NCBI GenBank assembly: GCA_963695545.1
Contig: OY968796.1
Coordinates: 2,624,001 to 2,688,000 of the forward strand
Direction of reading: 5' to 3'
Origin: Terriglobia bacterium
GTDB lineage: Bacteria > Acidobacteriota > Terriglobia > Acidiferrales > UBA7541
DNA: 64,000 nt
Positions 32,720-49,811 of this stretch are shown here, piece after piece. The first letter of the stretch is position 1. Each line of letters starts with the position of its first letter. The position numbers and the translations under genes were made by a program. The notes under the pieces were generated by a model. That model did not search any database. It was not told the origin of the DNA and worked only from the letters and a program-made list of their open reading frames with translations.

Positions 32720-34252
32720 ATGAATATGAATCGAAGAGAATTTCTGGCCTCGGCCGCGGCCCTCGCCGCGGTCCGCGCGCGTCTCGGCCGGCCGCAATCG
32801 CCGGAGCCATCGCACGGATTTCCGGCGTCGGTCTTGCGAAACGATTCCTCCTACGTTGAGGACCCGCCCGTTGCCGGCTACCACTGGGCTTCGGCCAGCG
32901 CTTACGAAGCGTTCCAGGACATGAAGTTCGGCATTCGCATTCATTGGGGCATTTATTCCATCTGGCATCGCGGAGCGGAGTCGTGGCCGTTCCTGCCGAT
33001 GTCGTTCGATGACCGGCAGACCTACAACAGCCTTTACAAAACCTGGAACCCCGCGGGCTTCGACGCAGATGCGTGGATGGATGCATTCAAGGAAAGCGGC
33101 ATGAAGATGTTTGCCTTCACCACCAAGCACCATGAAGGTTTTTCGATGTTCGACACGAAGACCAGGGTCAAGAACCGCGCAAACTGGACGGCACCAGGCG
33201 GTCCGGCGATCGAATCGTGCGATCTCTCCTACTCGATCATGGAAACTCCGTTTCGCCGCGATGTCGTGAAGGAACTCTGCGACGCGGCGCACAAACGCGA
33301 CATCAAGATCGATCTCTACTTTTCTCATCCGGATTGGTATGACGCAGACTTCCGCCCGTACGTGCAGCATCCGCTGCAGGTTCCGTCCTCGGCGCAGTTG
33401 CAAATCCCGAGTGATATCGCGAGAACGCGGCAAATTTACGACGATCATGCGGTGATCGTTGCCGATCCAACCGATGCGGAAGTGACGCGCATGATGGAGC
33501 GGCATCGCGCGCAGCTTGTGGAGTTGCTTACCAACTATGGAAAGATCGACATGATGTGCCTGGACATGTATCTCGGTCCGCGCGTCTGGCCGGAGATGCG
33601 CAAGACGGTGCTGAAACTTCGCGAGATACAACCCGACGTGATGCTGCGCAATCGGGGCATCGGCGATTACGGCGATTACTACACGCCAGAGCGCGTGGTT
33701 CCCGGCTCGAAAGGATCCTCGGACAAGCCGTGGTTTTGTATTTATCCGCTTGGCACGGATTTCTCATATGAAGCCGACGCCTCGAAATACAAAGGCACGC
33801 AGTGGATTATTCAGAATCTCGCGGACACCGTGGCCAAAGGAGGCGGCCTGATGATCGGAGTCGGCCCCAGCGCGTACGGAGAATTTCACCCTGAGCCGAT
33901 CCGGCAAATGAAGGGCGTTGGCGCGTGGCTGAAGGTCAACGGCGAAGCCATCTACGCGACTCGCCCGCGCGACGGCACGGATTGGTCCGAAGGCGATTCG
34001 ATTCGCTACTCCAGATCGAAAGATCGCCGGTTCGTTTACGCGATCCTCACTCAATGGCCGGGGACACAACTGAAGTTGAAGTCCGTGCAGCCCAAAAGCG
34101 GTTCTGAAGTGACGCTCCTGGGATCGAACGCCGCGCTCACGTGGAACTTCGACTCCGCTCTCGGAACGACGATTACGCTGCCCGAAAGTTTGCAGCAGCC
34201 TGCAAACCGGCCGTGCGAATACGCCTGGTGCTTTAAGATCGAGGCGATCTAG
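32720..34252 (+). CDS. Alpha-L-fucosidase (GH29), Tat-exported
   Basis: NRREFL; KFGIRIHWG, TTKHHEGFSMFDT, YFSHPDW and WLKVNGEAIYATRP. Confidence 0.92.
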   Translation: MNMNRREFLASAAALAAVRARLGRPQSPEPSHGFPASVLRNDSSYVEDPPVAGYHWASASAYEAFQDMKFGIRIHWGIYSIWHRGAESWPFLPMSFDDRQTYNSLYKTWNPAGFDADAWMDAFKESGMKMFAFTTKHHEGFSMFDTKTRVKNRANWTAPGGPAIESCDLSYSIMETPFRRDVVKELCDAAHKRDIKIDLYFSHPDWYDADFRPYVQHPLQVPSSAQLQIPSDIARTRQIYDDHAVIVADPTDAEVTRMMERHRAQLVELLTNYGKIDMMCLDMYLGPRVWPEMRKTVLKLREIQPDVMLRNRGIGDYGDYYTPERVVPGSKGSSDKPWFCIYPLGTDFSYEADASKYKGTQWIIQNLADTVAKGGGLMIGVGPSAYGEFHPEPIRQMKGVGAWLKVNGEAIYATRPRDGTDWSEGDSIRYSRSKDRRFVYAILTQWPGTQLKLKSVQPKSGSEVTLLGSNAALTWNFDSALGTTITLPESLQQPANRPCEYAWCFKIEAI

Positions 34253-35391: not shown

Positions 35392-35640
35392 GGGTATTTG
35401 CTCCCATCTCGATCTGCACGAGAGACCCTTACTCGCGTGCCAGAGTCGGAAGACGTGCCGTCGCTATATAGAGACGCTGGGGGAGGCCGCGAACGTTTCG
35501 TATTTTCTGAAAGCTTCGTTTTGGAGTCTGAAACTTTCGATCTGCACCTTAAAAAGTTACGGGATTCGAGCGCGGACTTGTGATAAGCAGAGATGTTGCA
35601 AACTTCAGGGCCCTGCCCGGAACGGGACGGCGACGCGAGA

Positions 35641-38064
35641 ATGGACCGAGACCCCGGATCAATCGACAAATCGAAGAGAAGGAAAATTGTTCGAGTATCC
35701 TCATTGATCCTCGCTGCGGTCCTCGCCGCTCTCGCGATGTCGGGCGCGGGACTGAGCACGGCGCGCGCCTCGGAACTCGACGACGATTGGGCCGCAATCC
35801 AGAATTTCCTCGGTGGGCTGAAGGGCGTGGTCACCACGCCGCCCGAGGGAATTGTGAATCAGCGCTACAGCGCCGGCTTGCTTATGGGCAATGGCGATAT
35901 CGGCGTCGTCGCCGGCGATACGACTTCCGATCAGAAATTTTATTTCGGCAAGAACGATTTCTGGGGCACGGCGCCCGATAACACCCATCCCGAATACCGG
36001 CCGGGTGTGCTCTCTCTCGGCGGGCTCACGATCAGTTCGCCCACGCCGAGCCCCAATCCCGATGCCGTTTATCGCATGGAGCAGGACATCCTCCACGCGC
36101 AAGTGACCACCACGATGCAGCTGGGCAACACCGTGGTCACGATGCGCTCGTGGACCGCGGATACCGACAACGTGTTCATCACGGAATTTTCGAGCGCAGC
36201 CGGCAGCGCGGCCGTTCCGATCAACGTGCAGCTGTGGATTCCACCGAACAAAGTTTATCCCTATGCGAGCGGCGAATCGGATGGCGCTCTGTGGATCACG
36301 CGCACAAATAATTTCTCGGGCGCAAACGATTTCATCGCTCGCGCCGCCATTGCCGTGCGTTTGCTGGGCACGCAATTTTCATCTCCCACGACTGGCGACG
36401 GCACCGCCAGCGGCACTTTCACGCTCGCGCCCGGAGTGCCGGTTCGCCTGGTGGCCGTGTTTCGCAGCGACGCGCGCACCGGACCCGCCGGTCCGACGAC
36501 GGACGCTTTGAGGCAACAGGCGCTCGCAGCCGCGGCGAGATCGAACACACCTGCCGTCGATGCATTCTGGGCAGGGCACCTCGCGTTCTGGAAAAGCTAC
36601 TGGCTGCGCTCGTACGTTCGCGTTTACGACGACCTGCTCGAGAAGTATTACTACGGAGCGCTGTATGTGCTGGGCTCGTCGACGCGGCCACACAAATTTG
36701 TGCAGACTCCGATGTTTGGCCCGTGGGTGACGACCGATATGTCCAAGTGGGGCGCGCGGTATTTCGACAATTACAATGTGGAAGCGCCGTATTACGGAAT
36801 CTTTTCCGCGAATCGCCCGGATTGGATTTTGCCTTACACCAATTTCGTTTTCGCGGAAGAGCCGTTTCAGCAGAACTACACGGCGATTGCGGGTTACAAG
36901 GGCGTGGCGTACACGCGCAGTTTTCCGCCGTTCGATCAGTATGCTCCGCGACCCGCGCCGGTGTCGATCGCGGAGGGCAAGGACTACACCAGATTCGGCT
37001 CAAGCGCCGATCAGAAGTCCGACGGCACGTTCCTCACGATTCCGGCGATTTGGTATTGGGAGTACACGCGCGACGATGTCTATTTGAGGAAGCGTCTGTA
37101 TCCGCAGCTCAAGGCGCTGGATGCTTTTTGGCGCGATTTTATGGTTTGGGATGGCAAGCGCTACGTGATCGAGGGCAGTTCGGCGCACGAAGGGCTGCCG
37201 GTGGACACCAATCCCAATCTCGATCTCGGATTTTTCCGGAAAGTGGAGAAGACGCTGATTGAAGCGAGCGGCGTGCTGGGCGTCGATTCCAATATGGTGC
37301 CGGTGTGGCGCGACGTGCTCGCGAAGCTGAGCGCGTATCCCACCGAGACGTACAACGGCGTGGAAGTTTTCACCATCGCCGAAGTCGTGAACAACGACAG
37401 TCATCGAGTGTTTGAGCCGTCGGGACAGCCGATCGACATGGAAGGCGTGGTTTTCCCCGGCGAAGACCTGGCGGTCGGCGGCGATCCGAAACTTTTGAAG
37501 ATCGCGATGGACACGCTTACGCAGATGAATTCCTGGGGTTCGACGCCGGGCTCGAACAGCACCAACGGTTTCCAGAAGGAATTTCCGATCGCCGCGCGCG
37601 TTGGTTGGCCGGGCGACGATCTGCTGGTGAAACTTCGCGCGGCGATCCTTTATCACTGGCGCGAGAGCAACCTGACGGTGGCGCATCAATCCGGCGGCAT
37701 CGAAACGGCCGGCACGATGGAATGCATCGACTCGATGATGCTTCAGCACGAAAACGGCGTGCTGCGCATTTTCCCGGTGTGGCCGACCGACAAGGATGCG
37801 ATGTTCAAGCGGCTGCTGGCGAAGGGCGCGTTCGAGGTCTCGAGCGAAATGAAAAATGGGGCGATTCCTTACGTCGACATCACGAGCGAGAAGGGCGGGG
37901 AATTGACGATGCAGAATCCGTGGCCCGACGCGAAGCCGACGATCGAGCGAATCGATCCCGCGACGCGCGCGAAGATCGCTCGCGTGAGTTACACGATGGA
38001 TGCCGGCAATTTGGTATTCACGACCAAGCCCGGCGAACGATATTTGATCACGCCGCAACATTAA
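35641..38064 (+). CDS. GH95-like glycoside hydrolase (alpha-fucosidase-related)
   Basis: Signal peptide; MGNGDIG, KNDFW, HLAFWKSYW, DNYNVEAPY and MMLQ...IFPVWP...GAFEVS; start uncertain (35593 or 35641). Confidence 0.7.
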   Translation: MDRDPGSIDKSKRRKIVRVSSLILAAVLAALAMSGAGLSTARASELDDDWAAIQNFLGGLKGVVTTPPEGIVNQRYSAGLLMGNGDIGVVAGDTTSDQKFYFGKNDFWGTAPDNTHPEYRPGVLSLGGLTISSPTPSPNPDAVYRMEQDILHAQVTTTMQLGNTVVTMRSWTADTDNVFITEFSSAAGSAAVPINVQLWIPPNKVYPYASGESDGALWITRTNNFSGANDFIARAAIAVRLLGTQFSSPTTGDGTASGTFTLAPGVPVRLVAVFRSDARTGPAGPTTDALRQQALAAAARSNTPAVDAFWAGHLAFWKSYWLRSYVRVYDDLLEKYYYGALYVLGSSTRPHKFVQTPMFGPWVTTDMSKWGARYFDNYNVEAPYYGIFSANRPDWILPYTNFVFAEEPFQQNYTAIAGYKGVAYTRSFPPFDQYAPRPAPVSIAEGKDYTRFGSSADQKSDGTFLTIPAIWYWEYTRDDVYLRKRLYPQLKALDAFWRDFMVWDGKRYVIEGSSAHEGLPVDTNPNLDLGFFRKVEKTLIEASGVLGVDSNMVPVWRDVLAKLSAYPTETYNGVEVFTIAEVVNNDSHRVFEPSGQPIDMEGVVFPGEDLAVGGDPKLLKIAMDTLTQMNSWGSTPGSNSTNGFQKEFPIAARVGWPGDDLLVKLRAAILYHWRESNLTVAHQSGGIETAGTMECIDSMMLQHENGVLRIFPVWPTDKDAMFKRLLAKGAFEVSSEMKNGAIPYVDITSEKGGELTMQNPWPDAKPTIERIDPATRAKIARVSYTMDAGNLVFTTKPGERYLITPQH

Positions 38065-38570: not shown

Positions 38571-41500
38571 TTAGAACGCGAACTTCACGGCCATCTGCAA
38601 TTCGCGTGGCGTGCTGGCAATCGCCTGAATCGCAGCCGCGGTTCCGTAGCTGATTGTGCCGCTACTGAACGAGGGAGCGATGCTCGGCGCGCTGGTGCCG
38701 CCCGTGGACCCGGGAATGGCCCAGACCACATGGTTGAACACGTTGAAGGCCTCGAAGCGGAATTGCAGCGTCTTGGTGTCGCTCAGTCGGAAGTTCTTCA
38801 GCAGCGAGAAGTCCACGTCGTTGAAGTTCTGCGATCGCAAGCTGCCGATCTGCAAGGTGCCGAAGCCGTAGCCGGGTCCAACGGTCGGCGAGGCGGGACT
38901 GATATAGCACGCCGGGTTGAACCACTCTGTGAGCGTGCCTTTGGGAACAGCGCAGTTCGGCAAGAGATCCGGACGGCTGTAACCGGTGATGGATTCCGCG
39001 GAATTGGTCAGGTTCGCCGGATCGGTGCTGGTGGGCGCGTCGCCTGCGATCGAAGCCGGCACGCAACTTGTGGTTACCGGAGTCGTGGCGTCGGGCGCGC
39101 AAAGATTGCTGGCACCGCCCCAGGTTGGGTTGAACGCCTGACCCGAGCGAGCCAGGAAGGAGAAGTTGGTCTCCCAATTCCCGACGATCCAGGATAGCAG
39201 CCCGTGGTTCACCCACTTTTCTCCGCGGCCAAAGGGCAGGTCGTAGACCGCGCTCCAATTGAAGAGTTGCGGAATGTCGTAGGCGCAGGGTCCATACGAG
39301 AGAGATTGGTTGAAGAAATACTCGTAGGGCGCGCCTTCTCCGCCGTTCTCAGCATTGAACTGTCCGTTGGCATTGCCAAGGCACCTCGACCATGTATACG
39401 CGATGAGTGTTTCGAGTCCGTGCGAAAAGCGCTTCTGGTATTGGGCTTGAAGCGCGTTGTAGTTAGAGGAGCCGGTACTCTCGGCGTAGTTTAATGCCTG
39501 AGCGAACGGCATGTACTCCGTCTGGTTGATTTGCGCCTGGGTCAACGGCGTGGTCGGGCAGGTGAAGCCCTGATTCGCGTTGTTCTCGCAGAACGGGCCG
39601 CCTTGCGGGTAGTTGATCTTGCAGCACCAATCGAGCCGCGCGGTTTTGCTTCCGACGTAGGCCACCGAGAACATCGAGGAAGCGGTCAACTGGCGCTCGA
39701 TTTGGAGGTTCCATTGCTGCGAACGCGGGTCGCTATAGTTCGGAGCGTTGGTGTAGCCGCCGAACGTGGAACCCCACGGTGTGGGCGCGATGACGATCGG
39801 CAGGCTTCCGCTCAAACCCTGCAGATTGGAGGTGCTGTACCCGCCGTAAGGGCCGCAAGAGGCGGTGCTGTAACAAATCGGGTTGACCGTCGGCGAAGGT
39901 GCGGCATTTTGCTCGGCGGTGTTCAGCGTGTCGGAAACACCTCGCGTCCAGGGCCAGACGGAGCCCTGAAGCGTGTTTTCTGCGTACTGACTGCGGTAGC
40001 TGATCGTGTCGTAGTAGATGCCATAGCCGACGCGCAGAACGGTGTTGTGCGTGAACTGCCAGGCGAGCCCAAGCCGCGGGCCGACGTTGTCGCTAATGGC
40101 CTTCAGCGCCGGTTGATTGCTTCCGGAGAACGAAATGTTGTTGAGCGTGTTGTAGGTGACGCCGCCGACGGTGACATTGAATGCCGCGTTAGAGCTTGAG
40201 AGCCCACCGGGGACGCACGGTGGAGCGACGGTGGTCGTGCAACCGGTGGAATACGCAGCGGTGTCCGCGGATCCGATGACGAACTGCTTGGCCGGGTAGT
40301 TGTAGGCGTTGATGGTCTCGCCGTCGCTGACCAACAGATATACCGGCGGGACGTAGTCATAACGCAGACCGATATTCACCGTGAGTGTCGGCTTGATGTG
40401 CCAGTTGTCCTGGGCGAAAAAGCCGATAGGCTCCATGGCGACGTGAACTTCTTCCAGCTGTGGCACGTTCACCGTGAACGCGGAAGGAAGATCAAGAAGC
40501 ATCGAAGCCAGGCCGTTGCCCTCGGCGCCGGAGCACGCGAAGTTTCCGGAACTGTTCGTCGGGCAGGTGTCGCTGGCACTGGAACTGAACTGCTCGTAGA
40601 GGTTGGTCTCGAGGCGATTCTCGTAGAGATATTCGCCGCCGAACTTGAAATTGTGATTGCCGTGGATCCAGGTCACGGTGGCGTTGAAATCGTGTTCTGG
40701 ATTCGCGCGATGCTCCGGGCCCACGTTGCCGATCACCGTGGGATAGCCGCTGGCCGGGCTCAAATAAAATCCATCGGTGGAGGAGAGCCCTGAGAAACCG
40801 GCGGTCGATTCGGGACCGTCGCCGGCCGAGTTGGTCTGATTGACCACGACGGGGCGCGAGTTGATGCCTCCGCGGACGGACAGAATCAGGTTGGGCGTGA
40901 AGACGTGGTCCCAAGCGCCGCCGATGTTCCAAGTATGGTAAGGACTGGGCGCAAGGGAGGTGGTTCCGGCAACGATTGACGTCGTGGTGTCCCACATCAT
41001 GTAGGCCCTGCCCATGATGGTGTCGTGGTTCCCGAAGTGCTCGTCAATGCGGGCGTCCATGTTGCTGTTGAGGTCGGTCTTGGGACGCGAGTCCAGGCAA
41101 TTGTCCACGGCAGAGGCGTAATTGGGCGTGAAGGAGCAGTTCGCGAATTCCGGCGCGGTGTAGGCCTTGATCACGGATGCGAGCTTGGTGTCGATCAGAG
41201 CCGCGGGAATCACGTTGCACGGAAAGCCGGCCATCTGTACGCCATAGCCGGAAGTGCCGAACGTCGCGGCCGGGTTCACCAGCGGCTCGGGCGTGGTGCC
41301 GCCCGATGCGGTGCACTGAAAGGGAATCGCCGAACTCGGGGAACTCTCCGCGAATGGATTGTAAAGCTGATTCGGAGTTACGCCGGTTTTGGTGGAATTT
41401 ACGGAGCCGACAAGTTCCGGCGTAACCGTTCCGCTGAAGTCACCAGAAAGTTCCTGGGTGGTCGGATCGATCGTGAAACTGTTGGTGGGCTGCGAGAAAT

Positions 41501-42539
41501 GCCAGCCTTCATATGCGAGGAAGAAGAACATTTTGCTTTTGCGAATCGGGCCGCCCACCATGCCGCCGTATTCGTTGATCGAGTATCCGAGTGGAGAAAC
41601 AGGTGTGCCGGAAAGTTGAGCTGCGGTTTCGGTTCCCGCAGCAACGGCCGCCGCGCCCGCCGGGCATGTCGCCGCGGTGCAGAATCCGTTGAACGGGTTG
41701 CGCGCGTCGAAAATATTGCTGCGCGCAAAATCCCAGGCCGCGCCATGGAGTTCATTGGTGCCAGACTTGGTGACGATGTTCACGACAGCACCGAGAACGT
41801 TGCCGTACTGCGGATCGTCGTTGTGGCCCTGCAACTTCACTTCCTGGACGGTGTCCGTGATCGGGGGCACGGACCAACCGCCGCCGCGATCGTCGGTATC
41901 GATAATTCCATCCATGTAGAACGCATTGGAGCGGTTTCCGGCGCCGTTCACCGCGGGCCGATAGACGATGGTGTTTGGAATTCCGATGTTGCCGCCATCG
42001 GCGCTGCCGATGCCGTTTCCGCCCTGCGCGGTGTTCACGGGGCTGACGCCGGGTTGGAGAATCAGGAGTTCGGTGAAGTTGCGGCCGTTGAGCGGCAACT
42101 CGTGCAGAGATTCCTCGTCAAGAAGCGTGCCGAGCTCGGTGCTCGAACTCTGAATCATCTGGCCGATAGCCGAAGCGCTGACGGTCACGGTTTCGGTTGG
42201 AGCCCCGACCTCCAAAGTCAGTTTCTCGGTGAGGGTCTGGTTCACGTCCAATGGGAAGATAGGCAGAGCGAGCGTCTTGAATCCTGTCCTCTCCACCGTC
42301 AGGACGTAGCTGCCGGGCAAAAGATTGATGATCGTAAACGCGCCATCGCTGTTGGTGATTTTTTCGCTGGTAACGTTCGTCGCTACGTTGGTGATTTTAA
42401 CCGTGGCACCGGGAACAATTGCACCCGAACTGTCCAATACGGTGCCGGTGACGGTGGCTGTCGGCGTCTGGGCGTATAGGCCGGTACAGACGAACAGCAC
42501 CGCGGCAGCGAGCAACATCACTGACTTACATGAACGCAT
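38571..42539 (-). CDS. TonB-dependent receptor (Oar-like)
   Basis: GGAGG RBS; GTVLDSSGAIVPGA, LPLNGRNFTEL, IVTKSGTN, GPRLGLAW, FRFEAFNVFNH and C-terminal RELQMAVKFAF. Confidence 0.93.
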   Translation of the reverse strand: MRSCKSVMLLAAAVLFVCTGLYAQTPTATVTGTVLDSSGAIVPGATVKITNVATNVTSEKITNSDGAFTIINLLPGSYVLTVERTGFKTLALPIFPLDVNQTLTEKLTLEVGAPTETVTVSASAIGQMIQSSSTELGTLLDEESLHELPLNGRNFTELLILQPGVSPVNTAQGGNGIGSADGGNIGIPNTIVYRPAVNGAGNRSNAFYMDGIIDTDDRGGGWSVPPITDTVQEVKLQGHNDDPQYGNVLGAVVNIVTKSGTNELHGAAWDFARSNIFDARNPFNGFCTAATCPAGAAAVAAGTETAAQLSGTPVSPLGYSINEYGGMVGGPIRKSKMFFFLAYEGWHFSQPTNSFTIDPTTQELSGDFSGTVTPELVGSVNSTKTGVTPNQLYNPFAESSPSSAIPFQCTASGGTTPEPLVNPAATFGTSGYGVQMAGFPCNVIPAALIDTKLASVIKAYTAPEFANCSFTPNYASAVDNCLDSRPKTDLNSNMDARIDEHFGNHDTIMGRAYMMWDTTTSIVAGTTSLAPSPYHTWNIGGAWDHVFTPNLILSVRGGINSRPVVVNQTNSAGDGPESTAGFSGLSSTDGFYLSPASGYPTVIGNVGPEHRANPEHDFNATVTWIHGNHNFKFGGEYLYENRLETNLYEQFSSSASDTCPTNSSGNFACSGAEGNGLASMLLDLPSAFTVNVPQLEEVHVAMEPIGFFAQDNWHIKPTLTVNIGLRYDYVPPVYLLVSDGETINAYNYPAKQFVIGSADTAAYSTGCTTTVAPPCVPGGLSSSNAAFNVTVGGVTYNTLNNISFSGSNQPALKAISDNVGPRLGLAWQFTHNTVLRVGYGIYYDTISYRSQYAENTLQGSVWPWTRGVSDTLNTAEQNAAPSPTVNPICYSTASCGPYGGYSTSNLQGLSGSLPIVIAPTPWGSTFGGYTNAPNYSDPRSQQWNLQIERQLTASSMFSVAYVGSKTARLDWCCKINYPQGGPFCENNANQGFTCPTTPLTQAQINQTEYMPFAQALNYAESTGSSNYNALQAQYQKRFSHGLETLIAYTWSRCLGNANGQFNAENGGEGAPYEYFFNQSLSYGPCAYDIPQLFNWSAVYDLPFGRGEKWVNHGLLSWIVGNWETNFSFLARSGQAFNPTWGGASNLCAPDATTPVTTSCVPASIAGDAPTSTDPANLTNSAESITGYSRPDLLPNCAVPKGTLTEWFNPACYISPASPTVGPGYGFGTLQIGSLRSQNFNDVDFSLLKNFRLSDTKTLQFRFEAFNVFNHVVWAIPGSTGGTSAPSIAPSFSSGTISYGTAAAIQAIASTPRELQMAVKFAF

Positions 42540-42811
42540 CGAAGCCTCCTTGCTTCACTTCATCGGATCGCAACTTGGATCCACCCCGATACCGCTCGAT
42601 CAAATTTCGCGCTAAAGAACAACAGTTGAAAAGTGTGTTTCAGCGCTTGAAACAACACGTTCAGCGGTTCTTCCCGCCGGTTTTGCGATGCGGAAGAACC
42701 GGCCCCGGACAGCGAACGCGGTAATCAGGCGCTTGCTCGCACCCGCAGCCATTGCTAGAATCCGTCTCCTGGCCCGGCATGCGAGATACACACCCAACTT
42801 TTCTGGGGCGA

Positions 42812-42900
42812 AATCTAGTTCCGGTGACGCATGGTCCACAAGTTAATTGGGGATACCGTGGGGCTACTCGGAAGATACATGAAAGATACGCGGAAGATAC
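42812..42900 (-). promoter_or_regulatory. Promoter of TonB-dependent receptor with five GTATC boxes at 11-bp pitch
   Basis: Plus-strand GATAC at 42852, 42863 (GCTAC), 42874, 42885 and 42896; minus-strand TTGTGG-18bp-TAGATT. Confidence 0.75.
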
Positions 42901-42974
42901 TTGCGGTGGTATATTGAGGGCCGATTTTGCCGATCGGAGCCGGTCTTGAGGCCGGGGCGAGAGCGTAGCGGGCT

Positions 42975-44447
42975 ATGAATATCACGCAAGCTCCTGGAAC
43001 CACAGAACTTGGCGGGCCTCCTCCCGAGGAGATTCAGAAGGAGTTAACCCGGCTTATCCATTCGAAAGCGTTTCGCCACTCGGCCGCCCTGCAGCGATTG
43101 TTACAGTACTTGATCGGCAGAGCCATCGAGGATCCCTTCGGGGACGTCAAGGAATACACCATCGGGACCGAGGTATTCGATCGAGGTCCCGGCTACGATC
43201 CCCAGACCGATACGATCGTCCGGGTTCAAATCCATCGATTGCGACTGAAAGTAAAGGAGTACTACGAATCGGAGGGGATCAACGACCCGATTTTCGTGGA
43301 CATTCCGAAGGGTCACTATATTCCCACGTTCGAGAGCCGGTCGGTTGCGGTTCCTAAGGCAAGCCAAACGAATGTCTCTGCCGAAACCATCACAACGCCT
43401 ATCGGGGGCCTTGACGCGGGTCCGAAGGAAGCGACACGCCCTGCATTTTTCACGCGAGGTGTTTTTCTGATCCCCGTGATCATGTTGATCTTTGCATCGG
43501 GAATTATTCTGGGCACGCGATGGGAACAGTCGCGGGTCTTGGCGACGAGCGATGCAATATCGAACCGCGCGGCATCAGCCGGCCTTGGCACGAGCGATGC
43601 GGCGGCGAGTTTCTGGAAAAGTTTTCTTGGCAGCGATTCTGCGCCGGTACTGGGATATGCGGACGCGGTCTATCTGGTTGACGGGGCGCAGGACCTGTTC
43701 CGATTCAGGCGCGGTGCGAGCGACAACCAAGGCACGCTGGTCGAACCTCATTTGGCTGAAGAATTCGCGTCCAGCCCATCGCTGGTCAAGCAGGCCGGTC
43801 CGCTGTATTACGAGGACGGCAACACGGGGACGGGAGATCTCGAAAGCGTCTTCGTCCTGACGCGGCTTTTCACGCAAATGGGCGTGCAAATGACGGTGAA
43901 GCGCTGCCGGCTGATGACCATAGACGACTTGAAGCAGCACGACGTCATTTTGCTGGGCTCGCCGGAGGAGAACGACGCGGTCGCGCAGCTGCCGCAGGTC
44001 GCGGATTTCGTGTGGACTCGACTAAATGTGCCCGGTCCGTGGAAGGGAGAATTCGTAAACAGCCATCCGCAACCGGGGGAGCGGCTTACGTACCAAACGG
44101 AACGCGATCCGAACACGCAGGAAGTGACGGCAGATTATGGCCTGATCACGCTTGAGCCGGGCGCGCTGCCGGGGCGATATATCGCAATTCTGGGCGGACT
44201 CGATACATCGGGCGTGGCGGGGTCGGCGCAATTCTTGACGTCGCCGTCACACATGTCCGAGCTGGAAGCGCGGCTGAAATCTCTTAGCGGGTGGGCGGGT
44301 GATGGTCCACCGCCGTCGTTTCAAGCGTTGCTGCGAGTGGCAGTGGAGAAAGGGCACGACGTTCTGGGAGTTCAACTAATAACCGTGCATCTGACGACCC
44401 CGGACAAAAACAGCGTGGGAACCACGCCGAACTCGGGCACTAAGTAG
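42975..44447 (+). CDS. Putative membrane-anchored one-component transcriptional regulator (N-terminal wHTH-like domain, single TM, extracytoplasmic domain)
   Basis: N-terminal F..S..L..LL.YL...KEYTIGTEVFDR...YDP..D.IVRVQIHRLRLKVKEYY...IPKGHYIPTF resembles an OmpR/CadC-type winged helix; hydrophobic span GVFLIPVIMLIFASGIILG. Confidence 0.75.
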   Translation: MNITQAPGTTELGGPPPEEIQKELTRLIHSKAFRHSAALQRLLQYLIGRAIEDPFGDVKEYTIGTEVFDRGPGYDPQTDTIVRVQIHRLRLKVKEYYESEGINDPIFVDIPKGHYIPTFESRSVAVPKASQTNVSAETITTPIGGLDAGPKEATRPAFFTRGVFLIPVIMLIFASGIILGTRWEQSRVLATSDAISNRAASAGLGTSDAAASFWKSFLGSDSAPVLGYADAVYLVDGAQDLFRFRRGASDNQGTLVEPHLAEEFASSPSLVKQAGPLYYEDGNTGTGDLESVFVLTRLFTQMGVQMTVKRCRLMTIDDLKQHDVILLGSPEENDAVAQLPQVADFVWTRLNVPGPWKGEFVNSHPQPGERLTYQTERDPNTQEVTADYGLITLEPGALPGRYIAILGGLDTSGVAGSAQFLTSPSHMSELEARLKSLSGWAGDGPPPSFQALLRVAVEKGHDVLGVQLITVHLTTPDKNSVGTTPNSGTK

Positions 44448-44633
44448 CGGCAGTAAAACCGGTCTAGCCGGGCGAAAGAGCTAAGTTGTGGACTCCGGAA
44501 TTTGCCTCGCTGAGCTCTGTTATCTCTCTCGTTTATAGCGAATTAGACGCGATTGACGTAGGTCTGTGGCGACGCGTTGGCTCGCGGCGAAAACTGCGCT
44601 GCGTATGCGGAATAGCGCACTTCGGCGCGCGAA

Positions 44634-44722
44634 GTATCTCTCGCGTATCTATCGCGTATCTCCCGGGTATCCTAGCGGTATCCCCAATTAACTTGTAGGC
44701 CGTGGTCCACAAGAACTAAATT
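44634..44722 (+). promoter_or_regulatory. Promoter of glycosidase gene with five GTATC boxes at 11-bp pitch
   Basis: GTATC at 44634, 44645, 44656, 44667 and 44678; TTGTAG-18bp-TAAATT; 21-bp identity with the inverted copy at 42838-42858. Confidence 0.75.
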
Positions 44723-44902
44723 CCGCGCGCAAACCTGAGCGTGTCTCGCACCTTGAGCGATGGTGAACTTGGACGCGGGATCTTGTGCAGGCGGGCATTT
44801 GCTCGAAGCGTTCAACATTCTGGAGCGAATTCGGTAGAAAATTGCCCACGCGGGGGAAGCACCGGCCTGGCGCTCCTTATCCCCATTCGGCACGGGAGAT
44901 TC

Positions 44903-47095
44903 ATGATGCGGCACCGCGTTGTGTGGCTTTGCGCTCTGGCTTCTGTGTTGGCGGTCTTGCCTGCGGCGGCTCAGAACTCGCTGCAGCCTCCAGCGCAATC
45001 GCCTCCACAGACGCGCGCGCAATGGGGCGCACCGGACGTGAGCGTGACGCATGCCGCAGGGCAGTGGACGATCGCAGGGAAGAAAAATCAGGTCGTTTTG
45101 AACGAATCGGATCTGGCGGTCAGCGTTACGGCCGAGGGCGGTGTCACGTGGAAAATGAAGCCCTCGCAAGACGACGACATCCTGGTCGCTTCGCATGGCG
45201 AATTGTTTCACGTCGCGCTCAAGAGCGCGCACCACATCGAGATCGTTCCGTACGACACAGGCTACAAGACCGGCGTCAAGATCACGCTCTCCGATTTCCA
45301 CGAGAACGGAATGCTTTACAAGGGCCAGCCGCTTGATCTGGTGCTCTACCTCACGATCTGCCTCGAAAATCCGAATGAAGACCTGGTGATGACGGCTGTC
45401 GCGAGCGAGCACGAAGCCGACGTGCGCCTGCTCGATTGGCCGACGGCGATGGACGCCAGCGACGTTGACTTCACCGTGCTCTCGAATGGCGAAGGCACAC
45501 TGGTGCCGCGCACCTGGCCCACGAAATTTCTGCCCGACAATATTTTCACGGGCGACGGCGCCGCCGAGGACGCGAGCGTAATCGAAAGTCATCTGATCGA
45601 GTCGTGGTCGATGTCCTGGTGGGGCTTTGAGAAGGGCCCGGCGGCGATGATGGTGATCGTCGAAACGCCGGACGACGCGGCGTATCAATTCGAGCATCCC
45701 GCGGGCGGCCCAACCGTGATCGGTCCGCAGTGGCGCGATCAGCTGGGGCGCCTCGCGTATCCGCGCAGCGTGCGCATGTGTTTTTTTCCGACGGGCAATT
45801 ACGTCACGCTGGCGAAGCGCTACCGGCAATACGTGATCGACAGCGGACTATTCGTTTCGCTGAAGGAAAAAATCGCGCGGCAGCCGCTGGTCGCGAATCT
45901 GATCGGCGCGGGCCACGTGGGCGAGCAGGCGCTGCGCAATATCCGGCCCGGTGCGTGGCAATACGATCCCGATCATATCGACGTCGATTATCGCGTGAAC
46001 ACATTCGACGATCTGGCGAAGGGTTTGCAATACTGGAAAGATCAGGGCTTCAACAAAATGATCGTCACGTTGTCCGGATGGCCGTACTACGGCTACGACC
46101 GCCAGCATCCCAACGTTCTTCCGCCCGCCCCGCAGGCCGGCGGCTGGGATGGTTTGAAGCGCTTTTTCGACGCCGCGCTGGCGCTTGGCTACACGCCGAT
46201 GCTTCACGATCAGTATCGCGATTACTACACGGACGCGCCCTCGTGGGATCCGCAATTCGCCGTGCATGAAGAGGACACCATCACGCCGTCCACAACATTC
46301 CCCGGTTCGCGCTTTGAGCACTGGAAAGACGGCTACATTCCGATGATGGATCACTGGAACGGCGGCGCGCAGAGTTACATTACGCCGTCGCTGGTCCTCG
46401 GGAACGTGGTCAGCAATTACGAGCAGATGTTCGCGCACGGCATTCATCCGGAAGGCTCCGGCCTCGACGTCTTCGGCTACGTTCCGCCGGATCGCGATTT
46501 CAATCCCGAGCATCCCGCCACGCGCACCGACGGAATGAACGCGCGCGCGGCGGCATTCATCTGGGCGCGTGTACATCTGGGAATCGTCGGCACCGAAGCC
46601 GGTTCCGATTGGGTGATTCCTTATGTGGACATGTGCACGCCGCACGCGTTCGGCAAGGCAATTCCCGTGCCGCTTTACAACCTCGTCTATCACGATGCCA
46701 TCGTGACCACGACAACCGGCAACTCGATGTACAGCGTTCTGCTCGACGAGGGCATCAATATGACGCGGCCTAATCCGAACGCAGGCGCCGGCGGTCCCGG
46801 CGCCGCGCCCGGTGCGCCCGGCGCTGCGGTCCGCGCGCGCGGAGGCGCGACCGAAGCCGACGCCGCGCGCCGCGCCGCTTCGCACCCGACGTTCACCGAT
46901 CCCGCGCAAGTCCTGAAGCTCGAAAAAGACGCGTTGGCACTACAGGAACGCGTCGGCCTGCTGGAAATGACCAATCATGAATTTCTCGACAAGAATTATC
47001 GCGTCGAGCGCACCACGTTTTCCGACGGAACCACAGTCACGGTGGATTGGGACAAGATGACGTACGACATCAATCCGCCGCTTCCGGCTCAATAA
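44903..47095 (+). CDS. Exported putative glycoside hydrolase (DUF5696-like, GH101/GH129-related)
   Basis: GGGAG RBS; signal peptide; YVTLAKRYRQY, GWPYYGYDRQHP, LHDQYRDYY, LDVFG and PVPLYNLVYHD. Confidence 0.65.
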   Translation: MMRHRVVWLCALASVLAVLPAAAQNSLQPPAQSPPQTRAQWGAPDVSVTHAAGQWTIAGKKNQVVLNESDLAVSVTAEGGVTWKMKPSQDDDILVASHGELFHVALKSAHHIEIVPYDTGYKTGVKITLSDFHENGMLYKGQPLDLVLYLTICLENPNEDLVMTAVASEHEADVRLLDWPTAMDASDVDFTVLSNGEGTLVPRTWPTKFLPDNIFTGDGAAEDASVIESHLIESWSMSWWGFEKGPAAMMVIVETPDDAAYQFEHPAGGPTVIGPQWRDQLGRLAYPRSVRMCFFPTGNYVTLAKRYRQYVIDSGLFVSLKEKIARQPLVANLIGAGHVGEQALRNIRPGAWQYDPDHIDVDYRVNTFDDLAKGLQYWKDQGFNKMIVTLSGWPYYGYDRQHPNVLPPAPQAGGWDGLKRFFDAALALGYTPMLHDQYRDYYTDAPSWDPQFAVHEEDTITPSTTFPGSRFEHWKDGYIPMMDHWNGGAQSYITPSLVLGNVVSNYEQMFAHGIHPEGSGLDVFGYVPPDRDFNPEHPATRTDGMNARAAAFIWARVHLGIVGTEAGSDWVIPYVDMCTPHAFGKAIPVPLYNLVYHDAIVTTTTGNSMYSVLLDEGINMTRPNPNAGAGGPGAAPGAPGAAVRARGGATEADAARRAASHPTFTDPAQVLKLEKDALALQERVGLLEMTNHEFLDKNYRVERTTFSDGTTVTVDWDKMTYDINPPLPAQ

Positions 47096-47153
47096 GTCGA
47101 GCCGTGGCCGCCGCTGGCGCTTGAGGCGGGACTGCATGAAGAAAAGGATGGCC

Positions 47154-48863
47154 ATGGACAACGCAAGCGATCACTCCCCGTCGAGACGCAAATGGCTGGG
47201 TATCGCAGCAGGGGCTTCGATAGGGTCGGGTATTCTGGCCGCCGCCGGCGCGGCCGCTGACCCGGCCAAGCGCGCTCCTTCCAACGACAGCGATCTCGGC
47301 GCGCGCGTCTACAACATCCGCGATTTCGGCGCCAAGGGCGACGGCTCGACGCTCGACACCGCCGCGGTGCAAGCCGCGATCGACGCCTGCACAAAAGATC
47401 AGGGCGGAACGGTGCTGGTTCCCGCGGGCGTGTTCGTGATCGGCACGGTCGAGCTCAAGAGCAACGTCACGCTGCGACTCGCGGCCTCCGCAAAATTGCT
47501 CGGCACGGCCGACGGCAAACAGTATCACGCCGCCGACGCGATCCCGCTCAGTGGCGATTCCACGCTCGGCGATGGAAACGTCGGGCTGATCTTCGCGGTG
47601 AAGGCCGACAACGTTACGATCGAAGGCCATGGCACGATCGACGGCCAGGGAGCGCAATTTCATTCGCCCACCCGCGGCGTTCTGCCGCCCGCCGGCATCG
47701 GCGGCGACAATCGCCCGTACCATCTGTTGTTCTATCAGTGCAAGAACCTGACGCTGCGCGACATTTTTCTGAACGACAGCGCGTATCATTCGGTGCGCAT
47801 TATCGAAAGCACCTTCGTGAAGGCCGACGGCCTGCGCATCTACAATCGTGTGAACGGCAACAACGACGGCTTTCACTTTATTAGTTGCCAGCACGTACAC
47901 GTCAGCAACTGCACGGTGCAATCCCAGGACGATGCCTGCGCTCTTTTCGGCAGCTGCAAATTCATCACCATTACGAATTCTTCGTTCAGCACGCGCTGGT
48001 CGGTTTTTCGCTTTGGCGGCGGTGAAGCCGAAAATATCGCCATCTCCAATTGCCTGATTTACGAAACCTACGGCTGCCCGATCAAGATGCGCTGCGGTCC
48101 GAATTCGCGCTTTGAAAATATCTCGTTCTCCAACCTGGTGATGACCAACGTCACCGGCCCTATTTCCATCGGCCTCGGCGATCCGCCACGCCGCCCTGGG
48201 GCGGCCTCCGCTTCCGAGACAGGCATGGCCCCGGGCATTCCGGGTATCGTGCGCAACATTTCTTTCAGCGGAATTCTGGCCACCGTGGTGGTCCCCACCC
48301 AAGTTCCCGGCGTGCCTTTCACGAGCGACTACAATCCGGGCGAAATAAAATCCTGCATCTCGCTGAATGGAGCGGGAGAGAACTTCATCGAGAACATTCG
48401 CTTCGACGATGTCCACGTGACCTTCGCCGGCGGCGGCACCGCGACGGATGCCGCCGTCCGCGATGTGCCCAAGGTCGCCGGCGAATACTACGAAGCAGGT
48501 GTTTTCCCCGCGTATGGGATTTATGCGCGCCGGGTGCGGGGATTGTCTCTTTCCAACGTGCGCTTCGATGTGAGCGCGCCCGAGCTGCGGCCGGCCATCG
48601 TTTTCGACAACGTGGTGGACGCCGCCGTGAACGGTTTGAGCGCGCAAGGCAATTCCCAGTCCGAATCGCTGTTGCGCTTCATCGAAACGCGCGACGTCTT
48701 GCTGACTGCCTCTCGCGTGCTTACGCCATCCGGCGTGTTCCTGCAGGTCGAAGGCGCCGGCAGCAGGGACATCACCGTGGACGGTGGTGATTTGTCGAAA
48801 GCCGATGAAGCGCTGGCTTTCCGCGGCGATGCAACCGAAGACTCGGTGAAGCTCCGGAGCTAA
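47154..48863 (+). CDS. GH28-related pectin-lyase-fold glycoside hydrolase, Tat-like signal
   Basis: SRRKWL; YNIRDFGAKGDG, GGTVLVPAG, LKSNVTL, GTIDGQG, NNDG and QDDA. Confidence 0.85.
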   Translation: MDNASDHSPSRRKWLGIAAGASIGSGILAAAGAAADPAKRAPSNDSDLGARVYNIRDFGAKGDGSTLDTAAVQAAIDACTKDQGGTVLVPAGVFVIGTVELKSNVTLRLAASAKLLGTADGKQYHAADAIPLSGDSTLGDGNVGLIFAVKADNVTIEGHGTIDGQGAQFHSPTRGVLPPAGIGGDNRPYHLLFYQCKNLTLRDIFLNDSAYHSVRIIESTFVKADGLRIYNRVNGNNDGFHFISCQHVHVSNCTVQSQDDACALFGSCKFITITNSSFSTRWSVFRFGGGEAENIAISNCLIYETYGCPIKMRCGPNSRFENISFSNLVMTNVTGPISIGLGDPPRRPGAASASETGMAPGIPGIVRNISFSGILATVVVPTQVPGVPFTSDYNPGEIKSCISLNGAGENFIENIRFDDVHVTFAGGGTATDAAVRDVPKVAGEYYEAGVFPAYGIYARRVRGLSLSNVRFDVSAPELRPAIVFDNVVDAAVNGLSAQGNSQSESLLRFIETRDVLLTASRVLTPSGVFLQVEGAGSRDITVDGGDLSKADEALAFRGDATEDSVKLRS

Positions 48864-48979: not shown

Positions 48980-49543
48980 CTAGGTCTTCGTCACTTTTCG
49001 CGCGCCGCCGCCGTGAGCATATTTTTTTGCATAACTTTTCAAAGCGTCTTTGATAATGGGATATGCGGTCTTCGCCGAGCCTATTTCTTCCACCTCAACC
49101 GTTTTGTTCTCGAGCTGCTTGTAGTCCTGGAAGAAGCGCCGCAGCGTCAGTAAATAGTGGGACGGTATCTGGCTCGCTTCTTTATACCCGTTGAACTCCG
49201 GGTCCTGCGTTGCGACGGAAATAATTTTGTGGTCCATCGCGCCGGAGTCCACCATGGTCATCAAACCGACGGTGCGCGCGTGGATGACGGCCAGCGGAAC
49301 CACTCCTTCCTGGCAAAGCACGAGCACATCCAAAGGATCGCCGTCTTCTGCCAGAGTTTGCGGAATGAAACCGTAATTGGCGGGGTAGTAGACCGCGGAA
49401 TACAGAATTCGATCGACACGGATGAGTCCGCTCGATTTGTCGAGTTCGTATTTCACATTCGATCCCCGCGGGATTTCGATTACCGCGTCGAACTCTTCCG
49501 GGACGTTGTCGCCGGGCTTCAGGTCATGCCAAGGATGTACCAT
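48980..49543 (-). CDS. ppa: Inorganic pyrophosphatase (family I)
   Basis: HPWHD, IEIPRGSNVKYELDK, YPANYGFIPQTL, DGDPLDVL and FFQDYK. Confidence 0.96.
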   Translation of the reverse strand: MVHPWHDLKPGDNVPEEFDAVIEIPRGSNVKYELDKSSGLIRVDRILYSAVYYPANYGFIPQTLAEDGDPLDVLVLCQEGVVPLAVIHARTVGLMTMVDSGAMDHKIISVATQDPEFNGYKEASQIPSHYLLTLRRFFQDYKQLENKTVEVEEIGSAKTAYPIIKDALKSYAKKYAHGGGARKVTKT

Positions 49544-49811
49544 GCATTTATCTCCCGACTGAATTTTCGCACAACTCCGAACGCAACCACCAACCCAATC
49601 CAAGCCCCGCCCTGAGTCTTTCTTGTCCTGCCGCGCATCTCCTTCATCATGCGCTGACCGAGAAAGGCGACAGGAAAGTCATGCGCAGATTCGTGCGCGG
49701 GGCAGTTCCCGCCGTCTCCCGGGCTCGCCGATGAAAACGGTTTTGGAACGAATCGCGTCTTGGGTATGATTCGTGCGTCGTATTTTGCGCGCCGCGCGAG
49801 GGGGTCTCGAG

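Follow-up and report, generated by a model that had tools for sequence, protein, structure and literature searches.

Arrays and promoters around the regulator gene

A 64-kb stretch of the genome of a soil acidobacterium of the Terriglobia (positions 2,624,001 to 2,688,000 of contig OY968796.1; hereafter the window, in whose own numbering positions are given) contains a plus-strand gene for a 490-residue protein (42975–44447) that is flanked on both sides by arrays of a short box repeated at helical pitch. The protein, called the regulator below, is laid out as a predicted DNA-binding N-terminal domain (N-domain), a linker, a transmembrane helix and a periplasmic domain. To its left lies a TonB-dependent receptor gene, and to its right lie a DUF5696-family gene and a glycoside hydrolase family 28 (GH28) gene. 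We analysed the arrays, the regulator and loci with homologous genes; the genome itself is a single contig of 4,159,512 bp.

The left array (42852–42900, minus strand) consists of five boxes, GTATC or GTAGC, at an exact pitch of 11 bp, read on the plus strand as GATAC at 42852, GCTAC at 42863 and GATAC again at 42874, 42885 and 42896. The right array (44634–44682, plus strand) has five GTATC boxes at the same exact pitch, starting at 44634, 44645, 44656, 44667 and 44678. A 21-mer, CGGTATCCCCAATTAACTTGT, is common to both, at 44676–44696 and as its reverse complement at 42838–42858, and the order of elements in the two inverted cassettes is the same: an array ending in the 21-mer, then TTGT(G/A)G, 18 nt and TA(G/A)ATT. 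On the left, a promoter-proximal TTAAC box (42846–42842) and the −35-like hexamer TTGTGG (42841–42836) together occupy 42836–42846 of the minus strand, and the −10 hexamer TAGATT (42812–42817, minus strand) predicts a start site at ~42805. On the right, the corresponding TTAAC (44688–44692) and TTGTAG (44693–44698) occupy 44688–44698 of the plus strand, followed by TAAATT (44717–44722, plus strand) and a predicted start at ~44729. The 18-nt spacer between the −35-like element and the −10 is thus common to left and right promoters. In both promoters a conserved AATTAAC contains TTAAC as a sixth box, 10 nt from the last GTATC, with 24 nt between its end and the −10.

An earlier note, made from the letters of this stretch, had described the arrays, the 21-mer, the −35 elements, the spacer and the −10 elements, and its coordinates all agree with the sequence. 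Its count of five boxes per promoter holds for the GTATC-type boxes at 11 bp, but each operator has six when TTAAC is included. The note also had both promoters pointing outward. The outward pair stands, but the left array additionally overlaps the regulator's own predicted promoter, for which the extended −10 TGgTATATT (42907–42915, plus strand) lies 9 nt past the distal left box. Because this element faces the regulator gene, divergent promoters lie on either side of the left array, which is at about −47 to −95 relative to the predicted receptor promoter and at about −22 to −70 relative to the regulator's own.

The −35-like hexamers TTGTAG and TTGTGG match TTGACA at three of six positions, and a scan of 42500–44900 for consensus sigma-70 promoters gave no sites, as is expected for activator-dependent promoters. 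A single terminator-like site, on the minus strand inside the 3′ end of the gene, is no more than shuffled sequences give.

Shuffled sequences predict 0.01 occurrences in the window of three boxes at pitch 11 with at most one mismatch; six are present. In a scan of the whole genome these six were the sole matches, and the pattern read backwards as a control gave none. Exact pentamer arrays with at least four copies at pitch 10–12 number nine in the genome, and none of the others combines five copies with pitch 11, as the right array does. The right array is also alone among those at pitch 11 in having letters other than G and C. A looser pattern of three boxes, G[TA]A[ATG]C spaced 11–12 bp, gave 23 matches genome-wide versus 19 in the control, that is, background. 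Only its six matches at the regulator locus are meaningful, and it found no arrays beside the three Malectin-domain paralogues of the regulator that the genome also encodes. The periodic arrays themselves are confirmed.

Another repeat lies within the same promoters. The 11-mer TGGTCCACAAG has exactly two copies in the window (42832–42842 and 44703–44713; 0.01 expected), both on the plus strand and therefore in direct orientation, while the cassettes around them are inverted. The left copy overlaps the −35-like hexamer, and the right copy forms a palindrome with its −35-like element (CTTGT...ACAAG). The 11-mer is not conserved in the five close orthologous loci described next.

Conservation of the operator and its genomic setting

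We fetched 65 homologous loci (799 kb). Five of them (L011–L015) are close orthologues, in which the regulator has 65–71% identity; they come from metagenome-assembled genomes labelled Acidoferrum, Aquilonibacter, Acidiferrales and 'uncultured Acidobacteriota'. Boxes, 11-bp pitch and promoter elements are kept on both flanks of all five, and the spacers drift. The left flank carries five G[A/C]TAC boxes, the AATTAACTTG element, CTAGATTC and the regulator's own TGnTATAAT, and the right flank three or four GTA[T/G/A]C boxes followed by AATTAACTTG and CTAnATTCCGCGC. AATTAACTTG is invariant in all 12 close-orthologue promoters, and a −10 is likewise kept in 12 of 12. Counting the window, CTAGATTC at the left −10 is retained in six of six left promoters and CTAnATTCCGCGC at the right −10 in six of six right promoters, and the regulator's own predicted −10 reads GGTGnTATAAT in the five orthologues and GGTGgTATATT in the window. 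Over the six left arrays, identity is 98% in the box columns and 75% in the spacer columns. The triple-box pattern matched 23 times among the 65 loci, every time in these five, and the control gave no match.

At most loci of more distant homologues (42–48% identity) the receptor gene follows the regulator gene in the same direction. Here about eight boxes of the forms GTAAC, GAAAC or GTATC, at pitch 11–13, precede the adjoining receptor gene, and the intergenic region ends in GTATCCC-N3-4-GTAACTAG, 24 nt and then TAnnGT. These loci have a single array only, and no −35 is recognisable at the corresponding place. The box consensus for the family is GTAnC and not, as given earlier, GTATC alone.

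A regular expression for the two-box promoter-proximal module gave 64 matches in 53 of the 65 loci, compared with one match in each of two controls. TAnnnT follows 21–26 nt downstream in 45 of the 64 matches, mostly at 23–24 nt; the last box ending ~24 nt before a TAnnnT −10 is thus a fixed geometry across the family. An nhmmer profile built from 29 operators found 33 of the 65 loci, 11 of them outside the training set. GTAnC boxes in helical phase co-occur with the regulator gene family, and the periodic arrays that the earlier note expected beside homologous genes are there, as full arrays in the five close orthologues and as the proximal module in 53 loci. In L063, a divergent pair of window-type modules (GTATCCCCATTTAACTTG; L063:11286 on the minus and L063:11553 on the plus strand) lies ~4 kb downstream of the regulator homologue, a placement for which a further copy of the regulator, outside the DNA fetched, may account.

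No full-length homologue was present at 1e-60 in 30 other genomes sampled from the same GTDB family. These homologue-less genomes had no array either, with four single pattern matches versus five in the control. With a homologue in 0 of 30 same-family genomes and orthologues in the metagenome-assembled genomes named above, the locus has a patchy distribution.

The receptor to the left of the regulator (38571–42539, minus strand) is a TonB-dependent receptor of 1322 residues with an N-terminal CarboxypepD_reg domain (PF25183, 6.6e-161; PF13620, 6.7e-19), and its orthologues in L011 and L012 have 71–74% identity. Further left, Pfam identifies a GH95 gene (35593–38064) and a GH29 fucosidase gene (32720–34252). 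On the right, the DUF5696-family gene (GH129/GH101-related; 44741–47095, plus strand; PF18952, 3.4e-17) has orthologues of 80–81% identity in L011 and L012, and its true start is likely at ~44903, where a signal-peptide-like stretch begins. It is followed by the GH28 gene (pectinase-type; 47121–48863, plus strand; PF00295, 1.4e-24), which is probably co-transcribed with it and which is found downstream of the regulator in L011–L015 at 72–73% identity. An inorganic pyrophosphatase gene on the strand opposite to the glycosidase genes (48980–49603) ends the cluster. A TonB-dependent receptor homologue is present within the fetched flanks of 58 of the 65 homologous loci. Among 19 neighbouring open reading frames (ORFs) of the window (22–57 kb), Pfam found no response-regulator, sigma or anti-sigma family, and several had no match of any kind. 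One of the proteins encoded in the window (22710–25382; 890 residues) is rich in TPR repeats and has a weak match to BTAD, the bacterial transcriptional activator domain.

The predicted 5′ untranslated regions (UTRs) are long: ~265 nt for the receptor (42540–42805) and, since the signal-peptide-like stretch of the DUF5696 ORF begins only from ~44903, ~170 nt for the right transcript (44729–44903). Among orthologues, the UTR that precedes the receptor gene ranges from ~80 nt (L011) to ~270 nt (L012). Rfam gave no match at E ≤0.1 on 42300–45100, so the long UTRs contain no known riboswitch or leader. Two metatranscriptome runs each yielded one short contig with 100% identity to the window, one inside the regulator gene (43746–43940) and one at 44752–44910, where the right operon is predicted to have its 5′ UTR, starting ~22 nt past the predicted start site. 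These contigs are uninformative on start sites, strand and level and may reflect DNA carry-over, and thus offer a weak hint only; stretches that no contig covers carry no information either way.

The regulator protein and its family

Pfam and NCBIfam scans of the 490-residue regulator returned no families. Residues 162–180 (43458–43514) are the sole 19-residue window with a Kyte–Doolittle value above 1.6 (2.53) and hence the only candidate membrane helix, in line with the membrane anchor claimed in the earlier note. A low-confidence linker in the model separates this helix from a predicted cytoplasmic winged-helix-like domain (residues ~15–122; 43017–43340), and beyond it lies the predicted periplasmic domain (residues 205–476; 43587–44402). 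The inferred topology places the N terminus inside and the C-terminal domain outside. One polypeptide thus combines a predicted DNA-binding domain, a transmembrane segment and a C-terminal extracytoplasmic domain, the arrangement that defines the ToxR/CadC class.

An AlphaFold model of the N-domain (first 129 residues, 22 homologous sequences) has a mean predicted local distance difference test score (pLDDT) of 84.6, with helices at 17–28, 37–52, 60–66 and 81–98 and strands at 106–109 and 118–121 that form a C-terminal hairpin. The predicted model therefore has the three-helix core, long recognition helix and hairpin wing of a winged helix. In a structural search with VIA-align, which is independent of Foldseek, 20 of the top 24 rows were OmpR/PhoB-type DNA-binding domains, as were 23 of all 50, aligned over residues 17–121 (71–89 residues aligned, root-mean-square deviation 2.7–4.2). 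Z for these rows is 5.4–7.4; because Z below 8 can reflect a common arrangement, we place weight on the consistency of the matched family and not on single scores. The matches include PrrA (Z 7.4), PhoP (6.8), GlnR (6.7), CadC (5ju7, 6.1) and TcpP in a transcription activation complex (9gdr, 5.4). The best four Foldseek rows from the PDB, SaeR in two entries, ArlR and Rra, are all of the OmpR/PhoB type (E 0.06–1), and no row in that search reached E 1e-3 or better.

The sequence evidence, though faint, agrees with this. When compared by hhalign with 20 canonical Trans_reg_C domains, drawn from this genome and eight relatives, the N-domain gave E 9.6e-4 at a probability of only 22% over 57 columns, with helices 1–3 in register. 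Helix 3, VRVQIHRLRLK, aligns over the canonical recognition helix, V.V.(I/M)RRLR.K. The ESM Atlas returned unnamed Acidobacteriota clusters only, plus a cluster at rank 29 with Trans_reg_C in 22% of its members. The N-domain is thus predicted to be a membrane-tethered, divergent OmpR/PhoB-like winged helix. The wHTH-like fold that had been proposed for it is supported by the model, the VIA-align ranking and the top four Foldseek rows, with Z at most 7.4 and a sub-threshold match to PF00486.

At least 819 full-length homologues exist, and all the named ones are called 'hypothetical' and come from Acidobacteriota. Cultured carriers are Granulicella mallensis, Edaphobacter modestus, Granulicella sp. 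S156 and Acidobacterium sp. S8. A profile search with the N-domain gave at least 21,332 representatives or clusters at 50% identity (E ≤1e-3), 17,939 of them at E ≤1e-10. We scanned 16 other N-domain proteins with Pfam: the N-domain part had no match, including to PF00486, and no Pfam model covers it, and C-terminal Pfam domains were found in 12 of the 16. Seven of these partners are TPR only; the others, one each, are PD40, an NB-ARC STAND ATPase, an AAA_16 STAND ATPase with TPR, a Ser/Thr protein kinase with a cNMP-binding domain, and Malectin. The remaining four proteins have no Pfam domain. Canonical Trans_reg_C one-component regulators have these same C-terminal partners.

The genome itself encodes three further N-domain proteins (L008:1459–2910, L009:1459–3078 and L010:1468–3057, at contig positions ~2054278, 2788838 and 921915, respectively), in which the N-domain is the only part in common (31–34% identity) and the C terminus is in every case a Malectin domain. 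All three genes are head-to-head with a CarboxypepD_reg-type TonB-dependent receptor gene, so that four of four N-domain proteins of this genome adjoin a receptor gene in this arrangement. Their intergenic regions have GGTTAAC-GGTtAAT-TtAC-GGTTAAG in common, which towards the receptor reads TTAAC-N6-TTAAC and, from its sequence, looks like a related operator.

The periplasmic part (residues 205–476, 272 residues) folds on its own in the model, with a pLDDT of 82.5. It resembles the C-terminal part of BcsB (Z 10.6; Foldseek E 8.8e-4) and the non-catalytic N-terminal domains of GH67, GH115, GH84, GH138 and GH20 (Z 5.5–10.2), and BcsB and such glycoside hydrolase domains make up most of the top 27 structural rows. 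A PDB profile search with this domain gave no match at E 1 or better. Together with the Malectin domains of the three paralogues and the neighbouring genes for carbohydrate-active enzymes (CAZymes), the resemblance suggests, by analogy, that the domain senses a glycan or other carbohydrate cue.

Proposed mechanism, alternatives and known systems

We consider it likely that the product of 42975–44447 is a ToxR/CadC-type membrane-anchored one-component regulator that binds the six GTAnC boxes of both promoters and activates the receptor gene and the DUF5696/GH28 operon. Several copies would bind in head-to-tail order along the same side of the helix, between about −37 and −97, and the bound oligomer would stand in for the poor −35 and recruit RNA polymerase, switching on the receptor gene and the DUF5696/GH28 operon from the outward promoters. 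OmpR at F1–F3 of ompF and PhoB at pho boxes act in this way. The periplasmic domain would detect a glycan breakdown product, and the left array, by overlapping the regulator's own extended −10 promoter, would probably add autoregulatory feedback. The interpretation in the earlier note is supported by the computational tests it had proposed; binding and regulation remain predictions.

More tentatively, the family might be an Acidobacteriota counterpart of the sensor-regulators of Bacteroidota polysaccharide utilization loci (PULs): a huge unannotated OmpR-like clade (21,332 clusters at 50% identity) of membrane-anchored one-component sensors, each paired with its own receptor gene and reading GTAnC at helical pitch. 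In this broader picture, which we regard as less likely than not, the periplasmic module, whether Malectin or BcsB/GH-N-domain-like, would sense the imported glycan or, alternatively, occupancy of the partner receptor. Were receptor occupancy sensed, FecA–FecR–FecI signalling would be collapsed into one polypeptide.

Several results weigh against the proposed activator. For the protein, the VIA-align Z of 5.4–7.4 falls in a range that the tool itself terms 'middling', and the hhalign probability is only 22%. Pfam Trans_reg_C (PF00486) reaches 12.9 bits, below its cut-off of 26.2 (E 0.12), over residues 73–96 only, and gives no match to the full-length regulator at E 0.01; a PDB profile search with the N-domain found nothing meaningful (best E 0.55). 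The model also has a helix (17–28) where OmpR/PhoB domains have an N-terminal four-stranded antiparallel beta-sheet. For the DNA, the proximal module is absent from 12 of the 65 loci under the regular expression used, and 32 of the 65 are missed by the nhmmer profile. The expressions were composed after inspection of the sequences, so that the controls cover base composition and not pattern selection. Protein–DNA covariation between the GTATC-type and GTAAC-type subgroups was sought and not found; as the recognition-helix residues hardly differ between these subgroups, no covariation ties the protein to the box.

The arrays could be real operators bound by another protein, such as a canonical OmpR/PhoB response regulator. 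The membrane protein would then be regulated along with the targets, as a sensor or accessory protein with an N-domain that has no DNA-binding role. Direct repeats at 10–11 bp are the classical site type of those regulators. The genome encodes four canonical OmpR/PhoB-family members able in principle to bind such repeats, and the sub-threshold Trans_reg_C match and middling Z of the N-domain speak for this alternative. We nevertheless think it unlikely. The element travels with the regulator gene family, in 53 of 65 loci and many lineages, and is not found in the 30 same-family genomes without the gene; genes for response regulators or sigma factors are not among the conserved neighbours, and Pfam found none in the 19 neighbouring ORFs of the window; and in structure the N-domain is matched best by DNA-binding domains.

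The regulator might also bind the boxes and act mainly as a repressor or roadblock that is released on a signal or cleaved from the membrane. The left array, at about −22 to −70 of the regulator's own promoter, could occlude RNA polymerase there, and the direction of regulation, activation versus repression, is inferred from geometry only. That geometry makes a repressor improbable in our judgement, because both outward promoters have their boxes wholly upstream of the −10, ending at a fixed 24 nt from it and beside a poor −35 (three of six positions versus TTGACA), as in class II activation, and the distant homologues have no recognisable −35 there at all. An identical inverted 21-mer bracketing a single gene could be read as a duplication relic, the terminal repeats of a mobile element or a chance repeat with no regulatory role. 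We give this very little credence, as the enclosed gene has no Pfam family and hence no transposase or integrase domain, distant homologues have one array only, boxes are conserved as spacers drift, the chance expectation is 0.01 and the spacing to the −10 is conserved. On these grounds we rejected the mobile-element reading. We likewise rejected GTAAC as part of a promoter for an extracytoplasmic function (ECF) sigma factor, for which the spacing is wrong and a conserved CGT-type −10 is absent. The combination expected of such promoters (an AAC-type −35, a 16–17-nt spacer, a CGT-type −10 and a neighbouring sigma gene) was not found, and the only elements conserved family-wide are the GTAnC boxes and TAnnnT 24 nt from the last box.

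Acidobacteriota rank with the most abundant bacteria of soils and have many TonB-dependent receptor and CAZyme genes. In the portions of the literature that a full-text search covered, there was no description of this regulator family or operator and no paper on how receptor/CAZyme loci of Acidobacteriota are switched on. What is already known is the kind of activator, membrane-bound, of the ToxR/CadC type and using OmpR-like direct repeats; what is new is the cryptic, predicted DNA-binding clade, its periplasmic module, the operator and the systematic pairing with receptor genes in Acidobacteriota. The finding would add a clade to the winged-helix superfamily. It supplies a candidate regulator family, a concrete operator (GTAnC at 11 bp, last box 24 nt from the −10) and cultured carriers, which together make the question of regulation directly testable. 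According to a 2023 survey, Acidobacteriae are somewhat enriched in transmembrane transcription regulators (PMC10269533). As described there, the census needs a recognised DNA-binding domain (PMC10269533), and regulators such as these would probably escape it.

The regulator is like ToxR and TcpP of Vibrio cholerae and CadC of E. coli in having a cytoplasmic N-terminal DNA-binding domain (predicted here), a linker, one transmembrane helix and a periplasmic sensor, and CadC (5ju7) and TcpP (9gdr) are among the structural matches of its N-domain. ToxR, too, recognises direct repeats, to judge from the title of a reference in PMC10269533. Unlike these proteins, the regulator has no detectable Trans_reg_C sequence membership, a helix replaces the N-terminal beta-sheet in its model, and its periplasmic domain is unrelated and BcsB/GH-N-domain-like. 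The predicted targets are a receptor and glycosidases instead of porin, toxin or acid-stress genes, and there are six to eight boxes per promoter.

OmpR sites at ompF (F1-F2-F3) and ompC and PhoB sites at pho boxes are tandem direct repeats of ~10–11 bp that extend from the −35 region to about −100, with a poor or missing −35 and activation by a head-to-tail oligomer. The GTAAC and GAAAC boxes resemble OmpR half-sites. However, OmpR and PhoB are soluble and have a phosphorylated receiver domain, whereas the regulator is membrane-tethered and lacks a receiver, and the structural similarity is only remote.

In logic, the locus is like the SusR, hybrid two-component and ECF sigma–anti-sigma systems of Bacteroidota PULs: the gene for a membrane sensor adjoins receptor and glycoside hydrolase genes, which the sensor presumably induces in response to a glycan. 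There is no sign of shared ancestry with the PUL regulators, as judged from the absence of a Pfam or NCBIfam family and not from direct comparison with SusR or hybrid proteins. A further difference from the ECF systems is that Pfam detected neither sigma nor anti-sigma families in the neighbouring ORFs it was run on, and the receptor here is of the CarboxypepD_reg type typical of Acidobacteriota.

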